From an uncultured bacterium (GTDB lineage Bacteria; Patescibacteriota; Minisyncoccia; Moranbacterales; GWC2-37-73): 64,000 nucleotides of DNA. A program made the position numbers and the translations under genes. Below, piece by piece: positions 13,451 to 37,332 of the stretch (position 1 is the stretch's first letter; every line of letters starts with the position of its first letter). The stretch lies in contig CAINNK010000012.1 in assembly GCA_903851135.1 (NCBI GenBank), positions 4,282-68,281 of the forward strand. Reading direction: 5' to 3'. The notes beneath the pieces were generated by a model that saw nothing but the letters and a program-made list of their open reading frames with translations, searched no databases and was not told where the DNA came from.

Positions 13451-13679
13451 CTCCTTCTCCGTTTGATTATTAAATTTTCAAAACAACTATAACAACACAG
13501 GATAGGCTAAAAAGAGATAGTATTCAATGTAAGTCGACGATTTTTAAATGCTGAAAATAAAAAAGGCTTGGATATTGACAAAATAGGTGGTTTCGTGTTA
13601 ATTTTGCGTAGTCGGAAGATGACGACTAAAGGTGAGTAGAAAGTTGAAAGTTTAAAGGTTACAAAGAAAAATATAAAAA

Positions 13680-13766
13680 TGTCATCCTGAACTTGTTTCA
13701 GGATCTTCGTTGCAGAAAAGCTGGTGATTTTAATTAAGTAGATGCTGAAACAAGTTCAGCATGACA
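13680..13766. repeat. GTCATYC...GRATGAC inverted-repeat element, copy 1 (upstream of TrmB paralog)
   Basis: Left arm TGTCATCCTGAACTTGTTTCAGGATC, right arm GATGCTGAAACAAGTTCAGCATGACA; each arm carries its own CTGAA..TTCAG hairpin with compensatory G/C changes. Confidence 0.6.
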
Positions 13767-13779
13767 GAAAATTAATTAT

Positions 13780-14532
13780 ATGCGAACGGAAAAATTTTTG
13801 GAGGAAATTGGAATTGAAGGCAAGAAAGCGGAAATTTATCTGGCTTGTTTGGAGTTGGGCGGAGCCACGGCCTATTTGATTGCCAAAAAAGCTGGGATCA
13901 AAAGACCGACGGCCTATGATATCATCAACCAATTGCTTAGTGAGGGCTTGGTTCACAAGTCAATCAAGAGTGGGGCGACCCATTTTTCGCCGACTGATCC
14001 GCAGGTGCTTATCAACAAAACCAAGGAGCGAATGGCAAAAATTGAAAAAGTGATGCCGTTGCTGCAAAATTTGTACAATTCTCCCAAAACCAAACCTTTC
14101 ATTCAATATTTTGAAGGGCGTGAAGGAATTCGCGAAATGTATGAAGACAGTTTGCGGTCACTCAAGAAAGGCGAAGAAATTTTGGGTTATGTGGGCGAAG
14201 GAATCACGCAGCACTTACCAGAGTATACCCAGGATTATGTCCAAAGAAGAACTGAAAAGGGCATTGTTTTTCGGGGAATTTACAAAGCTGCGCCAGAAAT
14301 TGTGGCCTATATGCGGAAAAATAAAGAGCAACTCAGGGTTGGCAGAATTCTGAGTGAAAAAGCTTTTCCAGTTTCCAATGAAATTAATATTTACAAAAAC
14401 AAAATGGCCATTGCCAGTTATGGCCGCGAAATGTTTGGAATGTTGATTGAATCAGAAGAAATAGTGCGCACTCAAAAAGCCATTTTTGAATTGGCTTGGC
14501 GCGGAGCCGAGGGGTTGGAAATCACAGGCTAG
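13780..14532 (+). CDS. TrmB-like winged-HTH transcriptional regulator (paralog)
   Basis: N-terminal HTH EIYLACLELGGATAYLIAKKAGIKRPTAYDIINQLLSEGLV; C-terminal FEGREGIREMYED region shared with paralogs at 21696 and 37380. Confidence 0.7.
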   Translation: MRTEKFLEEIGIEGKKAEIYLACLELGGATAYLIAKKAGIKRPTAYDIINQLLSEGLVHKSIKSGATHFSPTDPQVLINKTKERMAKIEKVMPLLQNLYNSPKTKPFIQYFEGREGIREMYEDSLRSLKKGEEILGYVGEGITQHLPEYTQDYVQRRTEKGIVFRGIYKAAPEIVAYMRKNKEQLRVGRILSEKAFPVSNEINIYKNKMAIASYGREMFGMLIESEEIVRTQKAIFELAWRGAEGLEITG

Positions 14533-14535
14533 TTC

Positions 14536-14575
14536 CCGAAGGCTAAACCTTCGGTGCTCCGAAGGTTTAGCCTTC
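14536..14575 (+). terminator. perfect 17-bp inverted repeat hairpin after TrmB paralog
   Basis: GAAGGCTAAACCTTCGG tgct CCGAAGGTTTAGCCTTC; no clear T-run. Confidence 0.45.
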
Positions 14576-14782
14576 TTGAAATCAAACATTGCAAATTGAG
14601 TCATATGCGTATAATTGCAATGTTATAATGAAAATAAAAAAATTATTTTATTTAAATGTTCGTATGTTTATATGCTTGAATGATTGAATGTTTTTTTGCA
14701 CAATTGGTGCGCTTAAGGTAGAATAATGATATAGAAAAAAAATTCTTTACTCACTGTAAAAACAAAAATACATATTTAGTCT

Positions 14783-17700
14783 ATGGTTAAAATTATCAAT
14801 CAAAATAATCCTGCCAATCCTTCCGTTCAAATCGCAGCAGACAAACTGTTGCAGAAAATGCGAGGACAATCAGAAGAAGAGCAGGCAGCTTTGCTGGCCA
14901 ATGCTTATGGTTTGCCATATGTTGATTTGAACATTTTCCCAGTCAGTTCTGAAAAAATCAGAACCATCAGTGAAGAAGATTCTCGGCAATACAAAATGGC
15001 GGTGTTTCAAAAAGTTGGAAAGGAAACCAGGATCGGTGTGCTCGACCCGTCTAGCGAGGGCATGCTTTTGCATCTCGAAAAACTAAAGAAAGAAAATGGC
15101 TGGATGATAATCCTGTATGTCATCTCGCAATCATCGCTGGAAAAAATTTGGAAGAGATATCAAGAAGTTCCTTTGCTTGAAAACCTTGAAGCGATGCAAA
15201 TTTCTCTGAGCGGTGAAGACCTGGAACGATTTGATGAGGAATTTGGCAGCATGCTGGATTTGAAAAAACGCATCAAGGAAATTCCAACCACCCAGATAAT
15301 TTCCATTATCATGGCTGGCGCTGTCAAAATGAAAGCCAGTGACATTCACTTTGAACCTCAAGAAAAAGAAGTGCGGATGCGTTTTCGTGTGGATGGTATT
15401 TTGCAAAATATCGGAGATTTTCCAGCAGATGTTTATCATTTTATTCTCTCCAGAATCAAAATGATGGGCAAGATGAAAATCAACATCAAGGACATTGCTC
15501 AAGACGGTCATTTTTCAATTGACATGACGGATGGCAAAATCAATGTGCGTACCAGCATCATTCCCGGTAATCACGGAGAATCAGTAGTAATGAGGCTTTT
15601 GAGTCAAGCTGACACCCTTTTGTCTGTTGAAGATTTGGGCTTGCGAGGATTGGCCTATGAAAATGTGCAAAAAGAAATTACCAAGCCCCATGGCATGATT
15701 TTAACAACCGGACCAACCGGTAGCGGGAAAACTACCACCTTGTATGCTTTGGTAAACAAACTTAATACGCAAGGGGTCAAAATAATCACCATCGAAGATC
15801 CGATTGAATATGAAATTAAAAACATTTCCCAAACTCAAGTTGCCAAAGATCGTAACTATACTTTTGCGGAAGGGCTTCGCGCGATTGTGCGTCAAGATCC
15901 GGACGTTATTTTAGTGGGAGAAATTCGAGATGAAGAAACTTCTGACATTTCAATTAATGCAGCGCTTACTGGCCATTTGGTGCTTTCAACACTCCACACC
16001 AATAATGCGCCAGCTTCGATTCCGCGTTTTATTGAGTTGGGAGTTAAACCGAATTTGATCGCGCCTTCTGTTAATGCTTTTATCGCTCAGCGCTTAGTGC
16101 GAAAGCTTTGCCCGCATTGCAAAGAAAGCTATGAGCCAGCCAAGGAAACAATTGATTCCATGAAAAAAATTCTTTCGATTATTTCGCCGAAAGCCAAAAT
16201 CGAAATTCCCAAAGAGGTTAAATCGCTATATCGTCCAGTTGGTTGTGACAAATGTCACGGGCTTGGTTTCAAAGGACGAATTGGAATTTTCGAAGTTCTG
16301 ACAATCAGTGAAAGTGTGGAAAAATTGATTCTTGAAATGGGCAGCGAAAGAGAAATAACTCAAGCAGCGCTGGAAGATGGCATGATAACCATGGCGCAAG
16401 ACGGAATTCTCAAGGCGATTGAGGGCGTAACTTCAATGGAAGAAGTTTGGCGTGCCACTGGGCAAACTGATTTTCTGGAAGACATCTATGCCAAGCTCAT
16501 GGAGTCTTCACTTTCACGCTCGATTGAAGTGACCAAAGATGATTTGGATTTCGTTTTTGAAAACATGACGTCCATTGACTCACTTGGGGGCATGATTAAG
16601 GAGGCTAATCAAAAAAGTATAGCCAAATATTTATTTGCCAGTAGTTTGCTTTTAGATGTTGGTGATATTCACATTGAACCAGAAGAGCATGATGTTAAAA
16701 TTCGTTTTCGAATTGATGGAATTTTGCAAACAGTTGCCATGGTTCCCTTAAATGAATACCCAAGCATTCTGGGCGAAATAAAATTTTTGAGCGGCTTTGC
16801 CAGTGAAGTCCGCGGCGGAGTGATTGATGGTCGTTTCATGATTTCACTTGAAGAGCCTTTTAAAAATATTTCTGAAACTAAAATTGACGTGCGCGTTTCG
16901 ATTATTCTGGGTGGCTACGGCGAAACAGTTGTAATGCGAATTTTGAACAAGTCTTCCATCACGCTTGATATTGAAAAATTGGGCATTCGCCAGCAAAATT
17001 TGGAAAAAATTCTAAGAGAATCGAAAAAACCGCATGGTGTGTTCCTCAACACTGGTCCAACCGGCAGCGGAAAAACCACAACCTTGTACAGTCTTTTGAA
17101 AGTGCTTAACAAATCAGAAGTGAAAATTATCACCGTTGAAGATCCGATTGAATATCAATTGGAAGGGATTTTGCAAACTCCTGTTAATGACAAAGAAGGG
17201 TATACTTTTGCTACTGCCTTGAGAGCTTTGTTGCGTCAAAACCCTGACATTATGATGATTGGTGAAATTCGCGATGAAGAAACTGCCAACATCGCCGTGC
17301 AAGCGGCTCTGACTGGCCACTCAATCCTTTCAACTTTGCACACCAACGATGCAGCTGGCTCAATTGCGCGTTTGGCCAACATGGGCGTGCGTGGTGATGA
17401 CATGGCTACTGCTATCAATGCCTTGATGGCCCAGCGTCTGGTTAGAAAACTTTGTGATTGTCGAGAAAAACGCCAGGCTTCGCCTGAAGAAAAAAACAAA
17501 ATTGAAAAAATTCTCGCCAGTGTTTCTGCCAAGTCTGGTGTGACCATTCCTACTGCTGATTTTGTTTTCCAGCCAAAGGGCTGCGAGAAATGCAAGGGCC
17601 TTGGCTACAAAGGACGCACCACGATTAGCGAAGTTTTGGTGGTTGACCGCGAAATCGAAGAGCTTATCAATCAAGGTGCATCTTCTTCTCAACTTCAAGA

Positions 17701-17800
17701 CAAAGCCATTGAAAACGGAATGATCACCATGGAGCAAGACGGAATGGTTAAAGTGTTGGAAGGCGAAACAACATTGGACGAAGTGGAGAGAGTGGTGTAG
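14783..17800 (+). CDS. tandem-fused GspE/PilB-type secretion ATPase (two complete ATPase modules in one 1005-aa protein)
   Basis: GspE N-domain then two copies of the ATPase core: Walker A TGPTGSGKTTTLYA / TGPTGSGKTTTLYS, Asp-box DPDVILVGEIRD / NPDIMMIGEIRD, His-box TGHLVLSTLHTN / TGHSILSTLHTN, and two tetracysteine Zn-fingers (CPHC..CDKC and CDC..CEKC). Confidence 0.9.
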   Translation: MVKIINQNNPANPSVQIAADKLLQKMRGQSEEEQAALLANAYGLPYVDLNIFPVSSEKIRTISEEDSRQYKMAVFQKVGKETRIGVLDPSSEGMLLHLEKLKKENGWMIILYVISQSSLEKIWKRYQEVPLLENLEAMQISLSGEDLERFDEEFGSMLDLKKRIKEIPTTQIISIIMAGAVKMKASDIHFEPQEKEVRMRFRVDGILQNIGDFPADVYHFILSRIKMMGKMKINIKDIAQDGHFSIDMTDGKINVRTSIIPGNHGESVVMRLLSQADTLLSVEDLGLRGLAYENVQKEITKPHGMILTTGPTGSGKTTTLYALVNKLNTQGVKIITIEDPIEYEIKNISQTQVAKDRNYTFAEGLRAIVRQDPDVILVGEIRDEETSDISINAALTGHLVLSTLHTNNAPASIPRFIELGVKPNLIAPSVNAFIAQRLVRKLCPHCKESYEPAKETIDSMKKILSIISPKAKIEIPKEVKSLYRPVGCDKCHGLGFKGRIGIFEVLTISESVEKLILEMGSEREITQAALEDGMITMAQDGILKAIEGVTSMEEVWRATGQTDFLEDIYAKLMESSLSRSIEVTKDDLDFVFENMTSIDSLGGMIKEANQKSIAKYLFASSLLLDVGDIHIEPEEHDVKIRFRIDGILQTVAMVPLNEYPSILGEIKFLSGFASEVRGGVIDGRFMISLEEPFKNISETKIDVRVSIILGGYGETVVMRILNKSSITLDIEKLGIRQQNLEKILRESKKPHGVFLNTGPTGSGKTTTLYSLLKVLNKSEVKIITVEDPIEYQLEGILQTPVNDKEGYTFATALRALLRQNPDIMMIGEIRDEETANIAVQAALTGHSILSTLHTNDAAGSIARLANMGVRGDDMATAINALMAQRLVRKLCDCREKRQASPEEKNKIEKILASVSAKSGVTIPTADFVFQPKGCEKCKGLGYKGRTTISEVLVVDREIEELINQGASSSQLQDKAIENGMITMEQDGMVKVLEGETTLDEVERVV

Positions 17801-17804
17801 GGTA

Positions 17805-17945
17805 GCTTGTTAGGCATTAGCTTTTTAGCTTTTAGAAAAATACATAAATTAGCTTGTAGTCCCAGTGGCATTTGCCACGGGATAAACTTCGTTAGCTTTT
17901 AGGAAATACACAAACTAACTTTTAGTTTTTAGAAAAATAAAAAAA
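17805..17945. repeat. degenerate tandem direct repeats (TTAGCTTTTAG-AAAAATACA units) with embedded hairpin
   Basis: two to three copies of a roughly 40-nt unit (gcattagctttttagcttttagaaaaatacataaattagcttgtag / cgttagcttttaggaaatacacaaactaacttttagtttttagaaaaat); CCCAGTGGCATTTGCCACGGG hairpin between them. Confidence 0.55.
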
Positions 17946-18816: not shown

Positions 18817-19653
18817 TTAATCAATCAATTCGAGTGCTAATTTACTTAGTTGTTGTCTTCGATTCTTCATTTTGTCTGCGTAGTTATTTTTTTCTGTTTC
18901 ATTCTCTAGTTCTTGGCCCCATGAAACACTAAGAATGCTGGATTTATCAGAGGGATCAAAAACTCCAGAAGAGTCGCTCGAAAAAATATCAACATTAACG
19001 CAAGCAAGCTGAGGTGATTTTATTTCTGTTAGAATTTTGAAAAATTTTGATGTTTTTGGTCTGTACATATAACTAAACCATTCTCCGTAGACTTCACTTG
19101 ATGGACAAGCTTCCTTTATTAATCTGCAGGCTAGCAGTAAGGAATCTCCTTCATTGCAAAATTCATCTATTACACATATTTTTTTGTCGTTCAATTTCAT
19201 GCCAAAGATTTCCAATAGTTGACTTCTTTCGCTTTTGGTAATCTGGCTAAATTGTTCGGGATTAATTTCTGACAGTGGTGTGGCAAGCTGAGTTACTGTT
19301 TTTTCTCTACCAATGTTTAAAAAACTGAAACCAGGTTTAATGTTATTGGACGTGGTGGCATCCCAAATTTTAGATATGAAATACCCAAGTAACCTAGCAC
19401 TCTTATCTAAAAAAATAACCTCCTCAATTGATTCTTCTCTTAATTTGTCAACCACCTTTTTTGCTCGTAGCAATACATTATGACGGTCATTTTCACCTCT
19501 GAATGTTTGGTCGTATTGAATATTTTCTAGGGATCTTTTTTCTTGCATAATCCTTTCCAGTTCTTTGTTATCTGGAGCAATATTTTTTGTACATTCCTCC
19601 TCATGTGCAGTCTTTTTTTTGTAGTTTTCTTGATTTGTTGACATTGTTTCCAT
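18817..19653 (-). CDS. hypothetical protein with PRTase-like motif
   Basis: KICVIDEFCNEGDSLLLACRLI resembles the type I phosphoribosyltransferase PRPP-binding loop; promoter region carries ATGACA-N12-TGTCAT palindrome directly upstream of a TATAAT box (19705-19735). Confidence 0.45.
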   Translation of the reverse strand: METMSTNQENYKKKTAHEEECTKNIAPDNKELERIMQEKRSLENIQYDQTFRGENDRHNVLLRAKKVVDKLREESIEEVIFLDKSARLLGYFISKIWDATTSNNIKPGFSFLNIGREKTVTQLATPLSEINPEQFSQITKSERSQLLEIFGMKLNDKKICVIDEFCNEGDSLLLACRLIKEACPSSEVYGEWFSYMYRPKTSKFFKILTEIKSPQLACVNVDIFSSDSSGVFDPSDKSSILSVSWGQELENETEKNNYADKMKNRRQQLSKLALELID

Positions 19654-19751
19654 ATCATTAGGTCTTTATTTATTATCTAAATTTTTTAGCATTGGACTAG
19701 TGAATACTTATATTATATGACACATTATTAATAATGTCATTTCATAAAAAA

Positions 19752-21466: not shown

Positions 21467-21695
21467 TTTGCTAAAGGAGACATGCTAGTTGATTTTCAAG
21501 GAACTTGCTAACTGTGCTAATGTGTTGAGTAATCCATCTCAACATCAAAGCATATCATAAAATGTCAAACATGTCGATAGTAAGATTAGATAGTAATTAA
21601 AATATTGACACTTTATGGCTTGTATGATAGGATATATATGTCGAAACATTTTCCACAACATTTACACTGTCAAATAATTTTTTAAATCTTTTTCA

Positions 21696-22457
21696 ATGAT
21701 AAAAAACCTTCTTTCAGCTCTTAATTTTTCCGAGAAAGAATCGCTCGTCTACTTAGCGCTTCTTGAAGTTGGCAATGGAAAAGCCCAGGAAATTGCAAAA
21801 AAAACGGGACTCAATCGCACGACCGTGTATGATATTTTTGAAACTTTGATGCAAAAAGGTTTGGTGAGTAAATTCAAAAAAGGCTCCGCGACATTTTTCA
21901 ATGCTTTGGAACCAAAACATTTGTTGACCTATTTGGATCGTGAAAAAGAAGAACAATCCAAAAAGATTGAAAAGCAAAAACAAAAAGTCTCCGAGCTTTT
22001 GCCACAATTAATTTCACTTCAAAACATTTTTACCGACAAACCGAAAGTACAATTTTTCGAAGGTGAAAAGGGAATGCGAGAAGCCTATGAAGACACACTT
22101 ACTGCCGATGGAATTCTTTTGGGATATTCTAACTTAGAGACAATCCATGAGGGTTTGCCAAATTTTTTTCCTGAGTATTACAAGCGTCGAGTTGAAAAAA
22201 AGATTTTCGGTCGCGGAATTTTGCCAAGAAATAAAATATCACTCGAAAGAACCACCCATAATCAAGAGGAAATGCGCGACGTTCGTTTTCTGCCTGATGA
22301 GGACATGACCTTTTCACCAGAAGTGAACATTTACAATAACAAAATTTTGATAGTTTCCTGGAAAGAAAAAATGGCCATTCTGATTGAATCCAAAGAATTG
22401 GCTGACTTGCAAAGGCTAACTTTCAATCTTCTTTGGGAAACTTTGCCTAGGAAATAA
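21696..22457 (+). CDS. TrmB-like winged-HTH transcriptional regulator (paralog)
   Basis: ESLVYLALLEVGNGKAQEIAKKTGLNRTTVYDIFETLMQKGLV; FEGEKGMREAYEDTL; promoter TTGACA-17-TAGGAT at 21606. Confidence 0.7.
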   Translation: MIKNLLSALNFSEKESLVYLALLEVGNGKAQEIAKKTGLNRTTVYDIFETLMQKGLVSKFKKGSATFFNALEPKHLLTYLDREKEEQSKKIEKQKQKVSELLPQLISLQNIFTDKPKVQFFEGEKGMREAYEDTLTADGILLGYSNLETIHEGLPNFFPEYYKRRVEKKIFGRGILPRNKISLERTTHNQEEMRDVRFLPDEDMTFSPEVNIYNNKILIVSWKEKMAILIESKELADLQRLTFNLLWETLPRK

Positions 22458-22466: not shown

Positions 22467-22588
22467 TGTCATTCCCGCGGAGGCGGGAATCCAGGTTTAA
22501 TGCAGATTTCTTCCTTTGATAATGGCTCTATAATAATATTTACAATCTTATTGTGATATTCTGGATTCCCGTTTTCACGGGAATGACA
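22467..22588. repeat. GTCATYC...GRATGAC inverted-repeat element, copy 2 (immediately downstream of TrmB paralog)
   Basis: arms TGTCATTCCCGCGGAGGCGGGAATCCAG / CTGGATTCCCGTTTTCACGGGAATGACA, roughly 65-nt AT-rich centre. Confidence 0.6.
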
Positions 22589-25320: not shown

Positions 25321-25483
25321 AGAGCGATGCGGTTTTTCCTCCAAAGGCGGACAATTGGGTTACAGACACTGAACCGACAAGGAAGATTTCAGCAAAAACT
25401 AGCTTATTTGTCAACATTTTTGATAAATAATTTTAATTATCCTATTTTTAAGCTATTTATTGGGGTATATGTGTATTATGTTA

Positions 25484-25586
25484 TTGATAATTTTGACGAA
25501 ATAGTGTAAGATAGCTTGTTATAGTTCATTTACATCACAACGCTTATCATAAAAAAATGATGAGCACAACCAAGGAGGATATTATG
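25484..25586 (+). promoter_or_regulatory. conserved promoter plus leader (extended -10) shared with 26947..27027
   Basis: TTGATA-17-TGtTAAGAT then AGCTTGTTATAGTTCATTTACA...AGGAGGATATTATGG; about 80% identical over roughly 70 nt to the region before 27025. Confidence 0.6.
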
Positions 25587-25892
25587 GAAAAAATAGCAAG
25601 CATTTTAACGCAAGGAACGATTGAGAATTTACTCGATGTATTCGGTTGGAAGGGTTTTGTACCCTATAACGCTTGTATATTTTTTGATGCGTGGAAAGAG
25701 ATTCAGGGCGATTCCGTTAATCTTGAATGCTCAATTTCCGAAAAAGAACACTGTTTTGATGTACATCTTCATCGAATAGGGTTTGTTTCCCCTAGAATAA
25801 TAGATGTGCAAGGATTAAGTGTGCAACAAATCATACGGCTCCTCATTGCAGATGACACGTATAAAGAACTTCGTAAGATAAAACCGGAGTAA
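25584..25892 (+). CDS. hypothetical small protein (102 aa)
   Basis: AGGAGG RBS 7 nt before ATG 25584 (MEKIASILTQ..); ORF track starts it 27 nt earlier. Confidence 0.5.
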   Translation: MEKIASILTQGTIENLLDVFGWKGFVPYNACIFFDAWKEIQGDSVNLECSISEKEHCFDVHLHRIGFVSPRIIDVQGLSVQQIIRLLIADDTYKELRKIKPE

Positions 25893-25923
25893 GTTGTACT
25901 TTAATCCTGCTTTACAAAAAAGC

Positions 25924-25998
25924 TGCCGACCCAGAAATCCTTCTGAGTCGGCCCCATCCTTGAAGACATAAAAGTTTGTGTTTTCAAGAAATGGATAA
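25924..25998 (+). repeat. conserved 3' cassette-end element, copy B (hairpin plus motif)
   Basis: hairpin CCGACCCAGAAATCCTTCTGAGTCGG then CCATCCTTGAAGACATAAAAGTTTGTGTTTTCAAGAAATGGATAA. Confidence 0.65.
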
Positions 25999-26073
25999 AC
26001 TGAGAACAGTGCAGTTCAAGTCATAGACGTTGAACCAATAAGTAGGTTATTTTTATTGAATTGGTTACTCTTT

Positions 26074-26847
26074 TTATTTTTTCTTTATCTCACTCCATAA
26101 ATTGCTAAAAACTTCACGCAAATTATGTGCCATGACCGGATTATAAATTTCAATCAGATAAAATGGGCGATTCTGCGTATAAATCATGATAATATAATCT
26201 CCAATAATCCAAAAAGAGGAAGTGAAATTTTTGCCAGTGCCCCAAAAATTGATTTCTCGTTGGGCGATTTTTTTTTCCACCATTTTCTTTTCAATTTCTG
26301 AAGCGTTGCTAAACATTTTCAATTGAATATTCTGAGTCGAAGGAGTTTTTAGCCAAAAAGCATCAATCCATTTTTTGTAGTGAGCCACAAGCGTATGGTC
26401 TTGAAAACCCCACCAGGTACTATCATACTTTTTTGCACTTTTGTTCCAGTCATTAGTTTGTTTATACAAATAATCTTCTAAATCAGCTTCTTCGATAAAT
26501 CTAATCTTTGGCATTGCATATTGCTGATTGGTTGGTAATTTCGATAATTCCTCCATCGCTTGTGTAATGAGTTTCTCTTCTTCCTTGAGTGACTGTTTCT
26601 TTTTTTCCAGCATATTGGTGAGTTGTTCTGGCGGAAGCGCCACTAAATAGATATACTTTTGGCCGATATCTTCAATTAAAACGCCCTTTTGGATTAAGCT
26701 CTTGGCGACGCTATAAACCGTTGTTCTATTGATGCCTGTATTCTTGGCAATTCTAACCGGAGTTGATCGCCCTAGGCGTAAAGCTTCAAGATAGATTTCT
26801 ACCTCTTTATCATTAAAGCCAATTTTTTTGAGTATTTCTTGAATCAT
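26074..26847 (-). CDS. TrmB-like winged-HTH transcriptional regulator (paralog)
   Basis: EIYLEALRLGRSTPVRIAKNTGINRTTVYSVAKSLIQKGVL; minus-strand promoter TTGACT-17-TATAAT ends 8 nt before the ATG (leaderless). Confidence 0.7.
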   Translation of the reverse strand: MIQEILKKIGFNDKEVEIYLEALRLGRSTPVRIAKNTGINRTTVYSVAKSLIQKGVLIEDIGQKYIYLVALPPEQLTNMLEKKKQSLKEEEKLITQAMEELSKLPTNQQYAMPKIRFIEEADLEDYLYKQTNDWNKSAKKYDSTWWGFQDHTLVAHYKKWIDAFWLKTPSTQNIQLKMFSNASEIEKKMVEKKIAQREINFWGTGKNFTSSFWIIGDYIIMIYTQNRPFYLIEIYNPVMAHNLREVFSNLWSEIKKK

Positions 26848-26946
26848 ATAGCTTTATTATAGCATGTTGTTGAAGACTAGTCAACAGTATTTTATTGCTT
26901 AAATAAAGCAATAAGTCCTTATAAAAATTAAACTGTTGCCAATATT

Positions 26947-27027
26947 ATTGACAGTTTGTCAAAAACAGTGTAAGCTTACTTGTTATAGTTCATTTACAAT
27001 TCACAATTTAATTAGGAGGATATTATG
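26947..27027 (+). promoter_or_regulatory. conserved promoter plus leader, second copy
   Basis: TTGACA(26947)-17-TGtTAAGCT, leader AGCTTACTTGTTATAGTTCATTTACAATTCACAA, AGGAGGATATTATGG. Confidence 0.6.
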
Positions 27028-27267
27028 GATATTCGTTTCGTGCAGACTTGTGGTTGCTGTCCCGAACAGTACGATGCTTATCTCGGGGATAAGTATGTCG
27101 GATATGTCCGTGAGCGAGGGGGTAGCTTTACAGTCGAGTATCCCGGAAAGGATGACTGTGAAAGAGAGTTACTTTTTTCTGCATATTCTGACGAGGGTTT
27201 TTCAAGTCAGTGGATGCTTAAAAAGGCAAGGAGGGCGATATGGAAAAAAATCATATCAATTCTCTAA
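27025..27267 (+). CDS. hypothetical small Cys-containing protein (80 aa)
   Basis: strong RBS; MDIRFVQTCGCCPEQYDAY.. ; followed by perfect hairpin CTGCCGATAGAATGGTTTTCTATCGGC and a degenerate copy of the 3' element. Confidence 0.5.
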   Translation: MDIRFVQTCGCCPEQYDAYLGDKYVGYVRERGGSFTVEYPGKDDCERELLFSAYSDEGFSSQWMLKKARRAIWKKIISIL

Positions 27268-27505
27268 CTTTCCGGACGGGAATACTTCACCCGTTGGCAA
27301 CAGAACCTCTGCAAAGAGGAAACGAAGGAGACCTGCACCGAACAGGTCGAAACGAGTCTGAAAGTCTCGAAAAAACTTTCAACAACTGCCGATAGAATGG
27401 TTTTCTATCGGCTCAATCCTCAGGAATATATTTTTGCAAAATGTATTTCTAAGGGATGAAAAAAGTTCATTACGAATAAAGCAGTTGAAAACAAGGAGAT
27501 AGAAA

Positions 27506-27958
27506 ATGAAATTGTTAGCAGAAAATGCAATTTTAAAATCAGTTAAAGGTAAGGGCGAGAACAAGCGGAATTGCTATTATCTTTATCTTGATGATCTGCC
27601 CAAAATAAAATTGGGAAATCTCGAGAGGACGCGAGGCAAGAAGAAACTTTTCATCATCGAGGATGAAGCTCTTGAGTCAGTTGAAACATTCATTGATAAG
27701 CTCTCGCTTTCAATTGAAGATGCGGCCCAAGACTCGGCAGTGGAGAGATTTTTTCATAGTCTTGTTTCTTGTAGAGGTAAAGAGGGAGAAGTGGCAATCA
27801 TCCTTGAACCACGTATGTGGCCCCTTACGGGATTATACAAGGTATTTGCTGGTGATCCTGATTACATCAAGGAGGATTTGAGCACACCGTGCCTCGCTTC
27901 GTATTATAAGGGGCAAATGCCATATCCATATGGCAAAATCAAAAAAAGCCTTTTTTGA
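27506..27958 (+). CDS. hypothetical protein (150 aa)
   Basis: ORF with GGAGA RBS; no motif recognised. Confidence 0.45.
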   Translation: MKLLAENAILKSVKGKGENKRNCYYLYLDDLPKIKLGNLERTRGKKKLFIIEDEALESVETFIDKLSLSIEDAAQDSAVERFFHSLVSCRGKEGEVAIILEPRMWPLTGLYKVFAGDPDYIKEDLSTPCLASYYKGQMPYPYGKIKKSLF

Positions 27959-27963
27959 TTCAA

Positions 27964-28040
27964 CTGGCTGATTTAGAAATCTTTTTAAATCAGCCCCATC
28001 CTTGAAGACATAAAAGTTTGTGTTTTCAAGAAATGGAGAA
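27964..28040 (+). repeat. conserved 3' cassette-end element, copy C
   Basis: palindrome GGCTGATTTAGAAATCTTTTTAAATCAGCC then CCATCCTTGAAGACATAAAAGTTTGTGTTTTCAAGAAATGGAGAA (44/45 identical to copy B). Confidence 0.65.
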
Positions 28041-28090
28041 ATTAATAATTAACAAGTTTTGTAGCTTAAAAAATAAACAAGGAGATTAAA

Positions 28091-30133: not shown

Positions 30134-30375
30134 TAATGGTGCAAGTCAAAGGACGCCAGAGAATAAAATTTTTTTCAAATATCCTCACCGCTCTTTCTTT
30201 TTTAACTAAAATTTTCCCTCACTCTATGGCAACCAATGGAAAATTTTAGAAAAAAGAAAGGCTCGCTCAAGCAATATATTTTTCAAAAAATTTTATTCTC
30301 TGGTATCCTTTGTATAGTGGTTTTTTGCTCGAATGCATTTTTCTTTTTTATTTTAGTTAAGAAGAAAAAGTATGC

Positions 30376-31383: not shown

Positions 31384-33393
31384 GTGATAACAAAGAAAAA
31401 AACAGAATACTTGCGGGTATTTTCATCGCTGGCACTGCCAATTTTTTTGGCAGTGTTTTTTGTTTTCAAATCGCACGTTTTTGCTGCCGGTCCCAGCGTT
31501 GTTATTAATGAAATTATGACGGCAGACCAAAATTCCACAAAAAATGAATTTATCGAATTATATAATCAAGGTAGTCAGGATGTTGACTTGGCAGGCTTCA
31601 GGTTGGTGAAAAAAACCGCAAGCGGCAGTGAGAGCACTTTAGTTGGTAGTGCAAAGTTTGTTGGAATAATCAAGTCGCATGGATATTTTGTGATTGCATA
31701 CCCTGATTTTAAAAACAGTGTTGAGACAGATTTGGTATATTCCAGCGCCTCGTATTCAATAGCAGACGACAATACAGTGCTTCTTTACGATGAAAATGGA
31801 GAAATGATAGATAAGGTTGGCTATGGCGGAGCAAGTGATTTTGAAACAAAGGCTGCGCAAAATCCTGAGGCAGGGTTTAGTCTTGGCAGGCTTGAGGGAA
31901 AAGACACAGCTGACAATAGCCAAGATTTTGCAGTGCAAAATCCATCGCCAGGAAAAGAAAACAAAAAATTGGCAGAAAAAATTTCAGATCCATTGAAAAC
32001 CTATTCAAACAAAATTCAAATCACCGAGCTTTTTCCGAATCCTTTTCAGGCTAAATATGAAGAATACGTTGAGCTTTACAATGGAACAGGGGAAGATATT
32101 GATTTGCTGGGTTGGACTTTGCACGATGCTTCAAAGTCCGGAAAATACACTTTTCCGGAAAGTCTCATTTTGAAAGCCAAGAAGTATTTGGCGGTCTTCA
32201 AAAAAGATTTCAAATTTGCGCTCAACAATTCCGGGCAGGAAAGTGTGACATTGTTTGATCCAAATGGTAAAGAAGTTTTCAAAGTGCAGTATGATGGAAG
32301 CAAAAAAGATGTTTCATATAATTTCGATGGAAATCGCTGGCGCTGGAGCAAATTTTTGACGCCAGGCACGGAAAATATTTTCAATAATGAGCCATATGGC
32401 ACCGTGAAAATGGATGAAGACATTTTTGTGAACGTTTATGCAAATTTTTCCGTTTCAATTGGCGACCTTGATGGTGATAAAATCAGTGTCACTTGGGATT
32501 TTGGCGATGGACATAAAAGCTACTTGGCAAAAACCAAACATAAATATGTTAAAGAAGGAAAATATTCAGTCAGAGTGAAATTGTCTGATAGCAGTGAAGA
32601 TGTGGTGAAGAATTTCACAGTTGAAGTTGGTCAGGTGCCGCATCCAAAAGTTCGGATCGTGGCCATCAACGCCAATCCTAAGGGCGCAGATACCGGCGAA
32701 GAATCACTGACTATTGAAAATCAGTCCAAGAAAAAAATAAATTTAAATGGCTGGAGCATTGCCACTGGTTGGAAGAAATTCGTTAATCATCCCATCAAAG
32801 AAGATGTGATTATCAAAAAAGACAAAACGGCGCAGGTGACGTCTGACGTTTCGAGCTTTTCTTTGAACAACACCAAGGCCAGGATTCAGCTGCGTTATCC
32901 AGATGGCAAAGTGGCGCAGGAAGTAAAATATAAAAAAGCCGAAGGAATTCAGGATGGGGAAGTTTATCAGAAAGTAAAGGGAGGATGGGTTTGGAAAATA
33001 GTAATCAGTAATCAGGAACTAGTAACTAGCAATAAAAATATAAAAGTCAGTGAACAGGAAGCAGTGGACGATAATCAAAAGGCAATAAGCAATGAACAGG
33101 AAGCAAAAGATAATAATCAAAACACACTAGACCTGACTACCGGACAGTCAGGCAATGTACAAGATGACAAGAGGGAAAATAAGATTTTAACTGGCGAAGA
33201 TGATTTGGTGAAAATTGAGTTGCTGAAAAATCAGCCAGCCGTGTTGGGGGCAGAAACTGTGCGGGAAGTCGGCGGGCAATATTTGTTCACTCCGCAGATT
33301 GAGCAGAAGCACTATTTAGTTTCGTTTTGGGAAAAACTCTTTACAAATTTAAATGCAGATATTACTTTTTTATTAAATTCTTTCTTAAAATAA
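31384..33393 (+). CDS. secreted/surface protein with three lamin-tail (LTD) domains and a PKD-like domain
   Basis: signal/TM LALPIFLAVFFVF; LTD signatures VVINEIMTAD..EFIELYNQGSQDVDLAGFRL, IQITELFPNP..EYVELYNGTGEDIDLLGWTL, VRIVAINANP..ESLTIENQSKKKINLNGWSI; PKD-like VTWDFGDGHKS. Confidence 0.75.
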   Translation: MITKKKTEYLRVFSSLALPIFLAVFFVFKSHVFAAGPSVVINEIMTADQNSTKNEFIELYNQGSQDVDLAGFRLVKKTASGSESTLVGSAKFVGIIKSHGYFVIAYPDFKNSVETDLVYSSASYSIADDNTVLLYDENGEMIDKVGYGGASDFETKAAQNPEAGFSLGRLEGKDTADNSQDFAVQNPSPGKENKKLAEKISDPLKTYSNKIQITELFPNPFQAKYEEYVELYNGTGEDIDLLGWTLHDASKSGKYTFPESLILKAKKYLAVFKKDFKFALNNSGQESVTLFDPNGKEVFKVQYDGSKKDVSYNFDGNRWRWSKFLTPGTENIFNNEPYGTVKMDEDIFVNVYANFSVSIGDLDGDKISVTWDFGDGHKSYLAKTKHKYVKEGKYSVRVKLSDSSEDVVKNFTVEVGQVPHPKVRIVAINANPKGADTGEESLTIENQSKKKINLNGWSIATGWKKFVNHPIKEDVIIKKDKTAQVTSDVSSFSLNNTKARIQLRYPDGKVAQEVKYKKAEGIQDGEVYQKVKGGWVWKIVISNQELVTSNKNIKVSEQEAVDDNQKAISNEQEAKDNNQNTLDLTTGQSGNVQDDKRENKILTGEDDLVKIELLKNQPAVLGAETVREVGGQYLFTPQIEQKHYLVSFWEKLFTNLNADITFLLNSFLK

Positions 33394-33395
33394 AA

Positions 33396-33430
33396 ATACT
33401 CCACTTAAGCTGGTTGCCTAAGTGGAGTAT
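33396..33430. terminator. bidirectional hairpin terminator
   Basis: ATACTCCACTTAAG ctggttgc CTTAAGTGGAGTAT between convergent genes. Confidence 0.6.
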
Positions 33431-33456
33431 AAAGATGGCAGTGATGCGAGCGAGGT

Positions 33457-33867
33457 TTATTTTTTACCACGGCTTGCAATTTTGAGTCTGCCGGAATCGG
33501 TGACAGTTAGAATTCCTTTGCGGATAAGGTCCGATCCTTTTAGTGCAATGAATGCCAGTATGTCCTTTGACGGAACTTCTGCAGATGTTTTGTGAATTCT
33601 GTCGATAATCTCGAGCTTATCTGCACCAGCTGGTCTGCAATGAAAAGAATGCTTTCCGATATCAATCGGACGGGCGAAACCAAGCTGCTGGTTGAGGCTT
33701 TTCTTCGAGCTACTTCCTGGCTTGCTTGAGCCCTGGCTGCCGGTTTTTTGTCCATGCAGGGTGGAAACGATTTTAAGTTTTCCGCTGTTTAATCCTGCAG
33801 CAAGCTGGTCAAGTTCATTTTGGTCAATGCAGCGTCCACCACGTCCGGTGATTTTTTTCTGATTCAT
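33457..33867 (-). CDS. hypothetical protein (136 aa)
   Basis: start at internal Met MNQKKITGRGG with AAGGA RBS; the upstream extension in the track reads as non-coding. Confidence 0.45.
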   Translation of the reverse strand: MNQKKITGRGGRCIDQNELDQLAAGLNSGKLKIVSTLHGQKTGSQGSSKPGSSSKKSLNQQLGFARPIDIGKHSFHCRPAGADKLEIIDRIHKTSAEVPSKDILAFIALKGSDLIRKGILTVTDSGRLKIASRGKK

Positions 33868-34421
33868 TGGAGTGTTCCTTGTTTTGGTATTTTTCAAAGA
33901 AAGAAATATCACCTTGGTCCAAAATTTTAAGGACTTTAGTGAATACAAAAAGGTTAATTCCTCTAGGTACCAAAACATTTTAGCAAAGTGTGAAAATATG
34001 TCAAGGGGTCTCAGAAACCCGATTTTATCGGCCTATTTGATTGTTATTTTGAAATAAAAAAGCCACCTCGCACGAATTATGCAAGGTGGTGAAACATTAT
34101 ACTCATTAAAGATATTTGTTTATTGCCGAGAGTGACCCCAAAAATAAAGAGCGGATGATTCGCTTTGTTTTGCAATTGCTGAAGAAATAAAAAATTGATA
34201 TGAAAAAAGCGCAAGAGGAAAATATTTTCCAATTGCGCTAGAAATTCTTTTTGCTTTTAATTAATATGCTGTAGATACAGATAATACAAAAGCAGAGTCA
34301 AGCCTGCCCCTAAGCAGCTCCATTTAAAATTAACCCAAGCCACTTTGGGATCCTGTGAAAATACTCTGGCAAAGATCTTTTTCATGTTTTTCTCCGTTTT
34401 TTTTGTTTTAATGTTTGGTTT

Positions 34422-34497
34422 TTCCATCTCTTGAAAGTACGAATTTTCATACTCTCAATGATGGGGCCGAGGTGGAAAGATTTCCAAATCGGCCAGG
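34422..34497 (-). repeat. conserved 3' cassette-end element, copy D (minus orientation)
   Basis: reverse complement reads hairpin GGCCGATTTGGAAATCTTTCCACCTCGGCC then CCATCATTGAGAGTATGAAAATTCGTACTTTCAAGAGATGGAAAAACC, directly downstream of the minus-strand gene 34505..34996. Confidence 0.6.
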
Positions 34498-34504
34498 TTA
34501 TTGT

Positions 34505-34996
34505 TTACTCCTGCAGTGACTTTGGGATTGCTGGTATTGTGTTGACAGAGACCATAAGATTATTGAGCGCCATCAACTTTAAAGTTACTTCCTCCCAGGT
34601 GCCTTTGAATCCAAGAAAATCTGAAAATGTGTTTTTTGCGATCTTTTCATATTCTTCATCCTTGGTTCTATCCGAAGATGTGCACCATGTGCAATCACCT
34701 ATGTATGCCTCATTATTATTTCTAAAGACAGCGGATAAACACCAGCGCGAGAAATCGCTGGAAAACAGATCAAGATCCAAGATTACATTAAATGGAATGT
34801 CAGGATCAGGGTCGTCATCTTCTGAACAGCACTCTATGGAATCATTAAGCGGTACGTTAGGAAGAATAATATCAAGAATAGAGAGTTTGTTAAATAGTAG
34901 ACACCACTCTTCCATAATTCCTACATTTGTATGATAGTCAAAATTACTCACTTCGGAAGCGATGCTTTTGATAATTGAATCGGAAGGCTTTTCCAT
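34505..34996 (-). CDS. hypothetical acidic protein (163 aa)
   Basis: compositionally protein-like (mixed, acidic, Cys pairs); preferred over the overlapping Ser-rich + strand ORF 34431..34934. Confidence 0.4.
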   Translation of the reverse strand: MEKPSDSIIKSIASEVSNFDYHTNVGIMEEWCLLFNKLSILDIILPNVPLNDSIECCSEDDDPDPDIPFNVILDLDLFSSDFSRWCLSAVFRNNNEAYIGDCTWCTSSDRTKDEEYEKIAKNTFSDFLGFKGTWEEVTLKLMALNNLMVSVNTIPAIPKSLQE

Positions 34997-35085
34997 GACT
35001 TTGTTTTTTTGATTGTTGTTGAATAGCTGTTTTTATAAATAGATGCGAAGTTTTGACCAAGGATAACTTCGCAAACCTTATTCTT

Positions 35086-35394
35086 CTAACAAACAATAGG
35101 GTTCATAATAATTTTTATGTCAAACAATCTATCGTTATGTCCCCTAAGAGAAGCATTTTGGGCATGAAGCTCCTCAATCTCTAGCTTCAAACTCTCTAGA
35201 GTTTCTACTTCTCCGCATTCTTCTGCGGACTTTTCTGCACTTTCGATGGGTTTGTATTTGGTGATTTCTTCGCCTGTTTCATTAAGCAATTCATCATTGT
35301 ATTCCCTAAGGGAAATACTTTGGGCGCGAAGTGACTTGATCTCGAGCTTCAAGCTCGCTAGAGTTTCTTCGTGTCCGCATTTTTCTGTTTTCAT
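35086..35394 (-). CDS. hypothetical coiled-coil protein with internal 2x roughly 45-aa repeat
   Basis: GGAGA RBS; repeats EETLASLKLEIKSLRAQSISLREYND / VETLESLKLEIEELHAQNASLRGHND. Confidence 0.4.
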   Translation of the reverse strand: MKTEKCGHEETLASLKLEIKSLRAQSISLREYNDELLNETGEEITKYKPIESAEKSAEECGEVETLESLKLEIEELHAQNASLRGHNDRLFDIKIIMNPIVC

Positions 35395-35545
35395 TTTTTC
35401 TCCGTTGGTTGCGTTTTTAAATAACTTTTTGTTAGATGATAGGTTATTCCTAATTCATCTTAACGAGCAAGTATATACTATTTTTGGTATTTTATCAATA
35501 GTAAAAAATGATAATATGCCTAAAAATAGCTTAAAAATAGGATAA

Positions 35546-35594
35546 TTAAAATTATTTATCAAGAATGTTGACAAATATGGTGGTTTTTGGTGGG
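35546..35594 (+). repeat. 51-bp direct repeat copy 1 (contains promoter-like TTGACAAATATGGTGGTTTTTGG)
   Basis: AATTAAAATTATTTATCAAGAATGTTGACAAATATGGTGGTTTTTGGTGGG; 48/51 identical to 37137..37187; the two copies bracket the methyltransferase plus PRTase pair. Confidence 0.6.
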
Positions 35595-35682
35595 CTATAG
35601 AGATAAAGAAGCTAAGTCTCCAAGGGGAGGCTTAGCTTCTAAAACTTTATTGTGATGTTCGGTTAGTTAAAGAAAAACAAAT

Positions 35683-36375
35683 CTATTTTTTCTTCGCCCT
35701 AAACAGAAAATAACCAGGATAGTTTTCTCCGTCAATGCACTCAGTGCATTCCTTTGTGTCAGCTTTTTCATGAAATTGTTCAATGATAAAATTATCAAAG
35801 AGCATATTTGAAAAGTAATCATTAAATGTATGGCTCCATTCTTTCAGAGGTAATGTATGCTCATATATCCATGAAACAACCACTTCCTTTTTGAAATAAT
35901 CTCTTGGTCGCTCAGGTTTTTCCAGAAAGTGCCTGACTGGATGAGTTGCTAAGACAATGAAATAACCGCCAGGCTTTAAAACCCTAATGACTTCATTGTA
36001 AAAATGTTCAATACTTTCAAACGCTTGTGGCGCATATTTTGAAACAACGACATCAAAAGTCTTATCTTCAAATGGAATAGCGTCAGATAGTCCAATTTTT
36101 ACGGAAGCTTCACCTAGTCTTTTGTTTGCAAATGCAACTTCCTTATCAGATGCATCAATACCACTAACCTTAAAGCCAAAAGTATCTCTATAATGTAAAA
36201 GATCATGTCCGCTGCCACAGGCCACGTCAAGTAATTTTTTTCCTTTTGTTTCAAAATTTAAAAATGTATAAAATAAGGCTCTGCTTTCCTTATCATACTT
36301 GAGCGTCTTCCAATCATGTTCATCTGCCCAGCTATTATATTGATCAACTGTATATATGCTTTTATTGCTAATCAT
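35683..36375 (-). CDS. class I SAM-dependent methyltransferase
   Basis: motif I LLDVACGSGHDLLHY, motif post-I/II FDVVVS, motif III RVLKPGGYFIV. Confidence 0.8.
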   Translation of the reverse strand: MISNKSIYTVDQYNSWADEHDWKTLKYDKESRALFYTFLNFETKGKKLLDVACGSGHDLLHYRDTFGFKVSGIDASDKEVAFANKRLGEASVKIGLSDAIPFEDKTFDVVVSKYAPQAFESIEHFYNEVIRVLKPGGYFIVLATHPVRHFLEKPERPRDYFKKEVVVSWIYEHTLPLKEWSHTFNDYFSNMLFDNFIIEQFHEKADTKECTECIDGENYPGYFLFRAKKK

Positions 36376-36395
36376 ATTTTTTAATTTAATTTAAT

Positions 36396-37028
36396 TTAAT
36401 TCTGCTTGATTCTGCTTGTTACTTTTGACCTATTTCCATTTGAAAGGAAGCTTACTAGAACTTTTGGCATAATTCCAGTTTCTCTTGCTATTCTTTCTCT
36501 TCCTTTGTAATCAGATTTTTCAGCAACTGAGAATATGTCAACAACTTCCACTCCAGCGCTTCTGAGCAACTTAACCATCGCTATGATAGTGCCGCCAGTA
36601 TCTATGATGTCGTCGACGATGATTGCTCTTTTTAAATTTGTCGAAAGACCATTTAGATACAATTTTCCATCCGTGTAGGCATTTTTAAAATCCACATGTA
36701 TTTCTCCTTCAAAACCAGCTGGATTCCATTTTGTTAGGGTGAAGGGTTTGTTAAATTGCATAGACAATATCGCGCAGAGATAGCCGCCCCTGTCTTCTTC
36801 ACCAACAATAAAATCAATATCATCGAAATTCACAATGCGAGAAGTTTCTTCTGCTATTTGTCTTAATAATTCAGGCCTTGTAATGGGAGCATGATCCGTT
36901 AAAGAGTTGACGCAGTATTTTTTGCCAGAAACCAATTTAATAGGTTTTTCGTTGAAAGTTTCAAAGATGTAATCACGCGCAGTATCTTTTTTTGAGGATA
37001 TAATACTTTTTTGATTCATATTTAGCAT
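36396..37028 (-). CDS. phosphoribosyltransferase (type I PRTase) family protein
   Basis: PRPP-binding motif RAIIVDDIIDTGGTIIAMVKLL. Confidence 0.75.
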   Translation of the reverse strand: MLNMNQKSIISSKKDTARDYIFETFNEKPIKLVSGKKYCVNSLTDHAPITRPELLRQIAEETSRIVNFDDIDFIVGEEDRGGYLCAILSMQFNKPFTLTKWNPAGFEGEIHVDFKNAYTDGKLYLNGLSTNLKRAIIVDDIIDTGGTIIAMVKLLRSAGVEVVDIFSVAEKSDYKGRERIARETGIMPKVLVSFLSNGNRSKVTSRIKQN

Positions 37029-37136
37029 ATTTTAGTTGGTTTAAATAAAGCATAACAAAATAATATACAACATTTCGACAAAATTATCAATAGTTATTTA
37101 CATGTATATGCCTTTGAAAGGCTTATAAAATGCAAA

Positions 37137-37187
37137 ATTAAAATTATTTGTCAAAGATGTTGACAAATATGGTGGTTTTTGGTAGGA
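37137..37187 (+). repeat. 51-bp direct repeat copy 2 (promoter TTGACA-17-TAGGAT driving the IR element and TrmB paralog)
   Basis: AATTAAAATTATTTGTCAAAGATGTTGACAAATATGGTGGTTTTTGGTAGG. Confidence 0.6.
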
Positions 37188-37212
37188 TTTAGGTAAGCTA
37201 ATTTTGTAATCA

Positions 37213-37318
37213 TGTCATTCTGAATTTATTTCAGGATCTCGGTTACAGGCAGTGTTGTGAAATAAAGAAAGTAGATTATGAAACCCTCCAAAGGCGGACA
37301 GGCAAGTTCAGAATGACA
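37213..37318. repeat. GTCATYC...GRATGAC inverted-repeat element, copy 3 (upstream of TrmB paralog)
   Basis: TGTCATTCTGAATTTATTTCAGGATCTCGGTTACAG ... GTTCAGAATGACA; left arm 30/35 identical to copy 1. Confidence 0.6.
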
Positions 37319-37332
37319 GCGGGATATGATAA

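Follow-up and report, generated by a model that had tools for sequence, protein, structure and literature searches.

The hairpin repeats that most closely resemble the elements described here are the NTS/dRS3 repeats of Neisseria, where the Neisseria Transformation Sequence (NTS) reads CGTCATTCCCGCGMAVGCGGGAATCYRG, together with the degenerate Ssn-related motif (SRM) defined alongside it, HGTCWYN(0-2)YYVSBRHN(0-5)WNVSBRGN(0-2)RNCYNB (Chenal et al. 2025, PMC11893778). SsnA, a 94-aa single-domain GIY-YIG nuclease, binds these hairpins solely as single-stranded DNA (ssDNA) and cuts a few nucleotides upstream; cleavage depends most on the three bases 5' of the palindrome, and binding on the C right after it (PMC11893778). 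Wolbachia is among the SRM-rich genera, its units, like those of Neisseria, being bound and cut only as ssDNA by a small single-domain GIY-YIG Ssn, and the published criterion is a spatial association of SRM units with single-domain GIY-YIG (Ssn, cd10448) genes (PMC11893778). The present analysis concerns three inverted-repeat elements in 64,000 nt (the window, meaning the whole stretch analysed) of contig CAINNK010000012.1 (assembly GCA_903851135.1, positions 4,282 to 68,281) from an uncultured bacterium of the Moranbacterales; the GC content of the window is 38%, and among named organisms its proteins have their nearest relatives in Candidatus Moranbacteria and other Parcubacteria. Each of the three elements abuts one of the five genes for TrmB-like winged helix-turn-helix (wHTH) regulators, p1 to p5, that the window holds (Table 1). 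From their layout we judge it likely that the three are inverted doublets of SRM/NTS-like hairpins, a pan-bacterial class of repeats at the DNA level.

The three TGTCAT...ATGACA inverted repeats of the original prediction are present beside p2, p3 and p5, the third being weaker than the other two. Doublet 1 has 27-nt arms (13680-13706 and 13740-13766) that are 93% complementary and separated by a 33-nt spacer, and doublet 2 has 28-nt arms (22467-22494 and 22561-22588) that are 86% complementary; doublet 3 retains only ~15 nt of terminal complementarity, with one mismatch in its left hairpin and a 19-nt insertion (37284-37302) in the loop of the right one. Every arm is a hairpin of its own and not merely half of a long stem, consisting of an 8-bp stem with a 4-5-nt loop and then a C. 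Arm A of doublet 1 (+ strand, 13680-13705) reads TGTC-ATCCTGAA-CTTGT-TTCAGGAT-C and arm B (- strand, 13741-13766) TGTC-ATGCTGAA-CTTGT-TTCAGCAT-C, while the units of doublet 2 are TGTC-ATTCCCGC-GGAG-GCGGGAAT-C and TGTC-ATTCCCGT-GAAA-ACGGGAAT-C. GTC stands directly 5' of the palindrome in all six arms (TGTC-AT...), and because the arms of a doublet are inverted, each DNA strand has one forward-sense unit. A loose scan for GTCWY followed by any hairpin was uninformative (92 matches versus 65 expected), and a strict layout was scanned for instead: GTC, an 8-bp AT...AT palindrome and C occur in this order eight times in the window, all six arms included, against 0.41 expected from shuffled sequences. 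Copies 1 and 3, both of the CTGAA family, are homologous along their full length (73% identity over 78 nt) and differ at only 3 of 27 positions in the left arm, which bears out the kinship first noticed there. Copies 1 and 2 fold with z-scores of -6.9 and -6.6, copy 3 with one of only -2.0; as ssDNA the two hairpins of copy 1 reach -6.1 and -6.7 kcal/mol, those of copies 1 and 2 together range from -6.1 to -9.8 kcal/mol, and those of copy 3 are degenerate (-2.8 and -2.4 kcal/mol).

The layout of GTC, AT...AT palindrome and C is that of the NTS and SRM units, and the agreement extends to sequence in doublet 2, whose + arm (TGTCATTCCCGCGGAGGCGGGAATCCAG) is the Neisseria NTS with two mismatches and whose - arm (TGTCATTCCCGTGAAAACGGGAATCCAG, from 22588 on the - strand) matches the published SRM pattern exactly, with 0.06 matches expected. 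The CTGAA arms lie outside that pattern, yet have the same layout. When one genome per species was scanned for TGTCATYCTGAA-N5-TTCAGRATC, the CTGAA-stem unit was found at at least 120 loci, with ~1 expected by chance according to our own calculation, in Gracilibacteria, Saccharibacteria, Parcubacteria, Gammaproteobacteria, Alphaproteobacteria, Bacteroidota, Melainabacteria, Elusimicrobiota and others, with spirochaetes, Chloroflexota, Planctomycetota and Bacillota among the further groups. The Y/R position of the stem covaries in 139 instances (C-G in 88, T-A in 46, mismatched in 5), and in 44 of the 139 a second unit, inverted and often of a different stem, lies no more than 200 nt away, the median element being 78 nt long. 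At six of the 120 loci listed, a single-domain GIY-YIG gene lies no more than 100 nt from the CTGAA hairpin, five of these genes being confirmed by Pfam, and the published association of gene and repeat is reproduced for this stem variant. As in Neisseria, the units of the window are extragenic and clustered beside particular genes. Judged by these likenesses, the elements are probably SRM/NTS-type doublets of the known Ssn class, with a stem variant beyond the published pattern that accounts for most window arms; they differ from the described systems in their Patescibacteria host, in their low copy number and in their favoured neighbours, which are TrmBL2-like regulators and not surface-protein genes.

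Several observations weigh against this assignment. The published SRM pattern is matched by only one of the six window arms, the NTS-like + arm and the four CTGAA arms remaining unmatched, and there are only three doublets in 64 kb versus hundreds of copies in Neisseria. A cognate Ssn gene was not identified in the 64-kb window; its 88-aa single-domain GIY-YIG protein is of the EERFLKSGKGRDRLK type, as opposed to the REKQLKNW...NPxWxDL type that adjoins CTGAA hairpins elsewhere, and no hairpin units flank its gene. The Ssn model by itself gives no explanation for a preference for TrmB flanks, and the estimate of that preference is biased because the relatives compared below were fetched via TrmB orthologs.

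Searches of NCBIfam and of PDB sequences gave no subfamily placement for the window GIY-YIG protein. Its gene is framed by tRNA-Ser sequence, with the intact tRNA-Ser(GGA) gene (59310-59399) on one side and, on the other, a 36-nt copy of the 5' half of that gene (58904-58939), which is 92% identical to its counterpart at a distance of 405 nt. The arrangement has the appearance of a small cassette that entered the tRNA gene and regenerated it. A second GIY-YIG gene of the lineage occurs in L157, a relative whose p3 protein is 89% identical: it encodes 84 aa (5746-6000), directly precedes the p3 start codon and lies in a mini-cassette (5710-6002) flanked by perfect 18-bp inverted repeats, ATTTACCCTGTCAAATAA and TTATTTGACAGGGTAAAT. 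A Lys occupies the expected catalytic Glu position of its product. Both GIY-YIG genes are of another subtype than those linked to CTGAA hairpins.

Close strains differ in what they have at a given locus: the doublet of one is replaced in another, inverted there or missing. This is seen when orthologs of p2, p3 and p5 collected from other metagenomes, to which the L-numbers refer, are compared with the window. At p2, an ortholog that is 90% identical (L128) has another hairpin pair, GTCTTTGCGAG... / ...CTCGCGATGAC, with the right junction unchanged from the window, GAAAATTA adjoining the element directly; different pairs again are found in L133 and L136, L132 has single units only (one 146 nt downstream of the gene and one ~1.1 kb upstream), and L129/L130, L131 and L135 have no doublet, only a ~25-nt leader after the promoter. 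At p5, the copy 3 element of the window is found in L140/L143 (88% identical) and L153 (85%), but turned round with respect to the gene; in L144 (83%) its place is taken by an unrelated hairpin pair, and L145, L155 and L156 (65-76%) have no doublet. Past the stop codon of p3, a doublet of NTS type begins after 10 nt in the window, one of CTGAA type after 13 nt in L146 (95%) and one of a third type after 12 nt in L157; the p3 loci L149 to L152 have none. A single ~87-nt doublet family with a conserved spacer is present only at the 5' flanks of p2 and p5 and, in L146, at the 3' flank of p3, and has reached three different loci in this Moranbacteria-like lineage.

This turnover bears directly on the proposal that the doublets are extended operators, in which the adjacent wHTH paralog would bind the hairpin palindromes for autoregulation. 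Orthologs with different elements agree at 73-79 of their 80 N-terminal residues, a stretch that includes the recognition helix. The p2 proteins of the window and L128 share 73 of these 80 residues and the same recognition helix, with unrelated hairpins at the same junction, and the p5 proteins of the window and L144 share 74 of 80 with a different doublet. Because orthologs with identical recognition helices have different, inverted or no doublets, we do not regard the doublets as operators; as far as sequences can decide, the ortholog comparison rules out paralog-specific operators. The same hairpin is moreover found at the loci in other phyla listed above, where no TrmB homolog occurs among the 120 listed, and one element of the window is 3' of its gene. 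Archaeal TrmB-family proteins have known sites of 6-N5-6 geometry, and the resemblance of the 8-bp half-sites with their N4-5 spacer to such sites speaks for the operator proposal, as do the adjacency of all three window doublets to paralogs and the pentamer TGTCA common to the doublet termini and the p1/p5 promoter palindrome; the conserved short promoter palindromes are, however, the better candidates, and we consider operator function of the doublets highly improbable.

The same comparison argues, at the level of sequence, against a dedicated strand-specific RNA element. Copies 1 and 3 must be transcribed because they are placed between a conserved promoter and the start codon, and their full stems fold with -36 and -29 kcal/mol, which is what a selected cis-acting RNA controlling translation or stability from the leader might look like; copy 2, which sits where convergent genes need a terminator, could likewise be a 3' stabiliser or terminator, but no T-run follows it. 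Kindred doublets are indeed catalogued as small RNAs in Wolbachia and Aggregatibacter: the consensus of WsnRNA46 and of AaHKsRNA41 is a GUCAU-hairpin ... hairpin-AUGAC doublet of similar length, and copy 2 matches the former (RF02625) and copy 1 the latter (RF02901) at full length. The scores, 33.6 and 33 bits, are far below the gathering thresholds of 65.3 and 97, the homology being confined to the repeat unit, and at gathering thresholds Rfam finds only tRNA-Ser in the window, to which relaxed thresholds add nothing but these sub-threshold models of doublet-type small RNAs. The orientation of an element relative to its gene flips between strains, sequence types are swapped at one site, distant orthologs are doublet-free with short leaders, and the symmetry of the units on the two DNA strands is as expected if DNA is what is recognised. 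A cis-acting RNA role is accordingly quite unlikely in our estimate, and the dedicated 5'-leader RNA originally envisaged fails on an element that is also found 3' of a gene and, in sister strains, turned the other way.

A third proposal held that the elements are miniature inverted-repeat transposable elements (MITEs). In its classical form, with a parent insertion sequence encoding a DDE transposase, movement in trans and regulator genes carried along or duplicated, it is very unlikely. The terminal inverted repeats TGTCAT...ATGACA, the size of 87-122 bp and the several copies of one family at different loci are as expected of MITEs. Their ends, however, are independent hairpins whose stems may differ, no transposase is near any copy, and no direct repeats that could be target-site duplications flank the three window copies. 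Nor do the hairpins bound the segment that holds p2: the doublets were considered as its limits and rejected, the breakpoints of the indel (12428 and 14583) lying elsewhere, and with this the notion of mobile units carrying regulator genes falls away. The paralogs are also far older than the elements, because the proteins are 22-37% identical versus ~73% identity of the doublet copies as DNA. What survives of the MITE proposal is that non-autonomous hairpin doublets have spread to several loci; the expected target-site duplication does not.

The association with TrmB flanks is real in the sampled lineage, as first suspected: the elements form a family that adjoins TrmB-like genes more often than chance suggests. 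In the relatives sampled, about nine doublet types lie at the flanks of p2, p3 or p5 versus three in other positions (following RuvB, preceding YebC and preceding an HhH-GPD gene). What is new here is the repeated occurrence of the ~87-nt family and several others at the flanks of three TrmB paralogs in Moranbacteria-like strains. The preference most likely arises because a few permissive intergenic sites prone to recombination, beside autoregulated stand-alone genes, tolerate the doublets or are targeted by them. It is possible, if doubtful, that the adjacency to TrmB genes is coincidental and that a compact genome simply accepts DNA at few intergenic sites of a flexible, insertion-rich region. 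The stretch from 12 to 39 kb is full of strain-specific indels (the p2 cassette and a 1.59-kb insertion); 34423-35077 is 99% identical to L140 8736-9390 in surroundings of 73-87% identity, which suggests recent recombination or transfer beside the p5 region; a sister strain has toxin-antitoxin-like and Fic genes in the corresponding stretch; and L149 and L151, with at least three TrmB paralogs each, have no doublets. Coincidence does not readily fit three of three window doublets and most of the types in relatives abutting p2, p3 or p5, nor the confinement of the ~87-nt family to these flanks. At the other extreme, doublets and GIY-YIG cassettes might be actively directed to, or selected at, the flanks of TrmBL2-like genes in Moranbacteria-like Patescibacteria. 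DNA bound or remodelled by these chromatin-like wHTH-PLD proteins might expose single strands for the GIY-YIG system, or the doublets might shield regulators from replacement in natural transformation, like the NTS-gene-NTS arrangements of Neisseria. We regard such targeting or selection as unlikely, a minority possibility because of the sampling via TrmB orthologs, the indel- and recombination-rich region and the two paralog-rich loci without doublets; if true, it would mean that the Ssn/SRM system has a defined biological target in bacteria other than Neisseria.

For SRM/NTS-like doublets, the reading we prefer, it is proposed that they spread and turn over via ssDNA intermediates in replication or transformation, leaving no target-site duplication, and that an Ssn-type nuclease with a gene somewhere in this genome acts on them. 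In the p2 and p5 leaders the doublets would be passengers, transcribed along with the gene, by which the mRNA gains a long stem-loop. Such a course would be similar to that of REP/REPIN repeats (RAYT, IS200/IS605-like), which by analogy share short extragenic palindromes, inverted doublets, lack of target duplication and recognition of ssDNA hairpins; the putative partner here is a GIY-YIG nuclease versus a Y1 HUH enzyme there, and neither a GTAG-type guide tetranucleotide nor a RAYT gene is seen. For the biology of Ssn nucleases and their repeats outside Neisseria, this case matters in that the repeat class is extended to a CTGAA-stem unit of many phyla that the published search pattern missed. 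Ultra-small Patescibacteria are thought to depend on DNA uptake, and the repeats can now be placed among them. The gain, swap and inversion of doublets and one GIY-YIG cassette at the borders of three TrmBL2-like genes make a concrete, testable pattern, and the local preference for such borders is a lead worth following. In annotation, labels such as operator, riboswitch-like leader or lineage-specific MITE are to be avoided for doublets of this kind, and short promoter palindromes are the regulatory candidates to favour.

Some further observations concern the doublets and similar repeats. Small GC-rich inserts (e.g. CCCTCCAAAGGCGGACAGG) occur in the loops of hairpin units in the window (37284-37302), in L146 (10767-10882) and in L133, L050 and L060; they are found in either arm and in distant phyla, as if the loops accepted a second, nested mini-element. 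A 1-kb strain contig (L006) is identical to the window from TGTCAT onward and has a different sequence directly left of the doublet (1-18); this divergent junction, which starts exactly at TGTCAT, was not traceable to another locus and may reflect either a rearrangement in that strain or an assembly that broke at the repeat. An apparent loss of YebC beside the doublet in L140 was rejected as a scaffold gap. Just past the RuvB gene, 30147-30312 is an inverted repeat with 33-nt arms that are 88% complementary and 100 nt apart, and does not belong to the GTC-hairpin class; the same intergenic region of the sister strain L146 contains a hairpin doublet (16031-16126).

All five paralogs match Pfam PF01978 (TrmB wHTH), as predicted, with E values of 3e-12 to 1.6e-17 and scores of 46.6-63.5 bits versus a cut-off of 25.6. 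Identity of the other paralogs to p2 is 22-37%; for p3 and p5, Parcubacteria homologs at 55-98% identity number in the hundreds, and related contigs hold at least three such paralogs inside 20 kb. By these comparisons the paralogs are old and conserved across Parcubacteria, and p2 is an accessory gene: in L146 the DHH and PilB-like genes stand without segment 12428-14583 between them, and L149 likewise has no p2 gene there. Lineage-specific regulatory expansion, as the set had been described, is the wrong label because the paralogs are old and Parcubacteria-wide and p2 is accessory; the hairpin motif itself is pan-bacterial. TrmBL2-type architecture was examined for p5 only. Its structure model (mean pLDDT 83) has the archaeal chromatin protein TrmBL2 (5bpd/5bpi, E 3e-14) as top PDB matches, followed by TrmB (3qph) and Nuc (1byr), and predicts a wHTH, a linker helix and a PLD-like domain, with no sugar-binding domain. 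The N-terminal PF01978 wHTH and this predicted fold with its PLD-like C-terminal domain make the regulators similar to TrmB/TrmBL2, and short palindromes as candidate operators would be a further likeness. They differ in forming bacterial (Parcubacteria) multi-paralog sets of an archaeal family, and the PLD/Nuc-like C-terminal domain of the p5 model differs from TrmBL2 in having no conserved histidine. A literature search on TrmB in Patescibacteria was without useful result.

The regulators most likely act via short conserved promoter palindromes and not via the doublets. The promoter block TTGACAAAWAKGGTGGTTT is repeated as predicted, at 13575, 35568 and 37160 with a weaker copy at 25414(-), four matches against 0.25 expected; common to the p2 and p5 promoters are a near-consensus -35 hexamer, a G/T-rich spacer and an extended -10. 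TAGTCG-N8-CGACTA, the candidate operator of p2, is kept whole or as a half-site in doublet-bearing and doublet-free p2 orthologs alike. For p1 and p5, TTRTCAA-N5-TTGAYAA has four window matches (p5, its related paralog p1 at 400-418, the duplicated promoter at 35556, and 25408) against 0.21 expected, and TGTCA-N7-TGACA has three (401, 37149 and 52320) against 0.09 expected, two of them being the p1 and p5 promoters. The latter pattern also explains one of two supposed short versions of the doublet palindrome: both sequences exist, but the one at 52320 is of the p1/p5 promoter type, and the other, ATGACA-N12-TGTCAT at 19718-19739 upstream of gene 18817-19653(-), is a single, divergent match and not a hairpin unit; TGACA-N12-TGTCA, with 0.03 expected, was reached by 3 of 100 shuffles. 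The leader of p3 has a conserved box, ATGTCGAAAYATTTTCCACAAC.

Table 1. Features of the window discussed in the text.
Feature	Position	Strand	Remarks
Doublet 1, CTGAA family	13680..13766		p2 leader; ends 13 nt before ATG
Doublet 2, NTS type	22467..22588		between convergent genes; starts 10 nt past p3 stop
Doublet 3, CTGAA family, decaying	37213..37318		p5 leader; inverted versus sister strains' copy
p1, TrmB-like	3..371	-	truncated at window start; no doublet; promoter palindrome TTGTCAATATATCTGACAA at 400-418
p2, TrmB-like	13780..14532	+	within 2.16-kb segment 12428-14583 that two related strains lack
p3, TrmB-like	21696..22457	+	core Parcubacteria gene; homologs 70-98% identical
p4, TrmB-like	26074..26847	-	no adjoining doublet
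p5, TrmB-like	37380..38123	+	predicted wHTH + PLD-like domain; best structural match archaeal TrmBL2
p2 promoter-like site	13575..13604	+	TTGACA, 18-nt spacer, TAATTT, TG upstream; kept in p2 orthologs
Palindrome TAGTCG-N8-CGACTA, candidate p2 operator	13609..13628		just past p2 -10 hexamer
Palindrome TTGTCAA-N5-TTGACAA, candidate p1/p5-type operator	37148..37166		over p5 -35 hexamer; kept in six p5 orthologs examined
TGTCATCCGAAATGACA	52320..52336		fits TGTCA-N7-TGACA, p1/p5 promoter palindrome, not hairpin layout
ATTTACACTGTCAAATAA, p3 leader	21660..21677	+	left 18-bp terminal inverted repeat of L157 cassette, 1 mismatch
Single-domain GIY-YIG gene, 88 aa	58986..59252	+	candidate nuclease partner of hairpins, possible only
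Left 87-bp direct repeat	35514..35600	+	original p5 promoter region
Right 87-bp direct repeat	37106..37192	+	p5 promoter now in use: TTGACA at 37160, TAGGAT

Two of the copies of the promoter block give no support to the shared regulatory promoter that had been supposed. They belong to the two 87-bp direct repeats, which are 82% identical and 1592 nt apart and flank a 1.59-kb insertion that contains genes for a methyltransferase (35683-36375(-)) and a phosphoribosyltransferase (36396-37028(-)) and is absent at p5 from the sister strain L140. The stretch 35400-35592 is nearly identical to the L140 region upstream of p5, and the similarity ends there. The different hairpin noted past the promoter copy at 35568 is confirmed at 35597-35650, just 3' of the methyltransferase gene.

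Between doublet 3 and the start codon, the p5 leader has a perfect tandem repeat of the heptamer AAAATCT (37333-37368, 5.1 copies). Relatives have AGAATCT-type heptamers in other copy numbers (L153, L144), and L140 has none; further intergenic heptamer arrays begin at 38239, 38990, 55803, 56159 and 58706 in the window. At 38986-39121 and 50695-50812 lie two related AT-rich palindromic intergenic elements with arms of 60 nt and 51 nt, 73-75% complementary, both with AAAATGACA ... TGTCATTTT in divergent orientation. The gene p4 is bracketed by duplicated modules (25478-26006 and 26942-28048) that comprise a promoter-like 57-nt repeat (79% identical) and, 3' of the genes, a 74-nt repeat (88% identical); the small genes enclosed by them have no Pfam match. 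Downstream of p2, 14783-17800 encodes a 1005-aa protein with two T2SSE (PilB-like) ATPase domains, which adjoins the DHH gene in relatives too and has internal DNA repeats (15888-16029 with 17232-17373, and 16366-16446 with 17704-17784).

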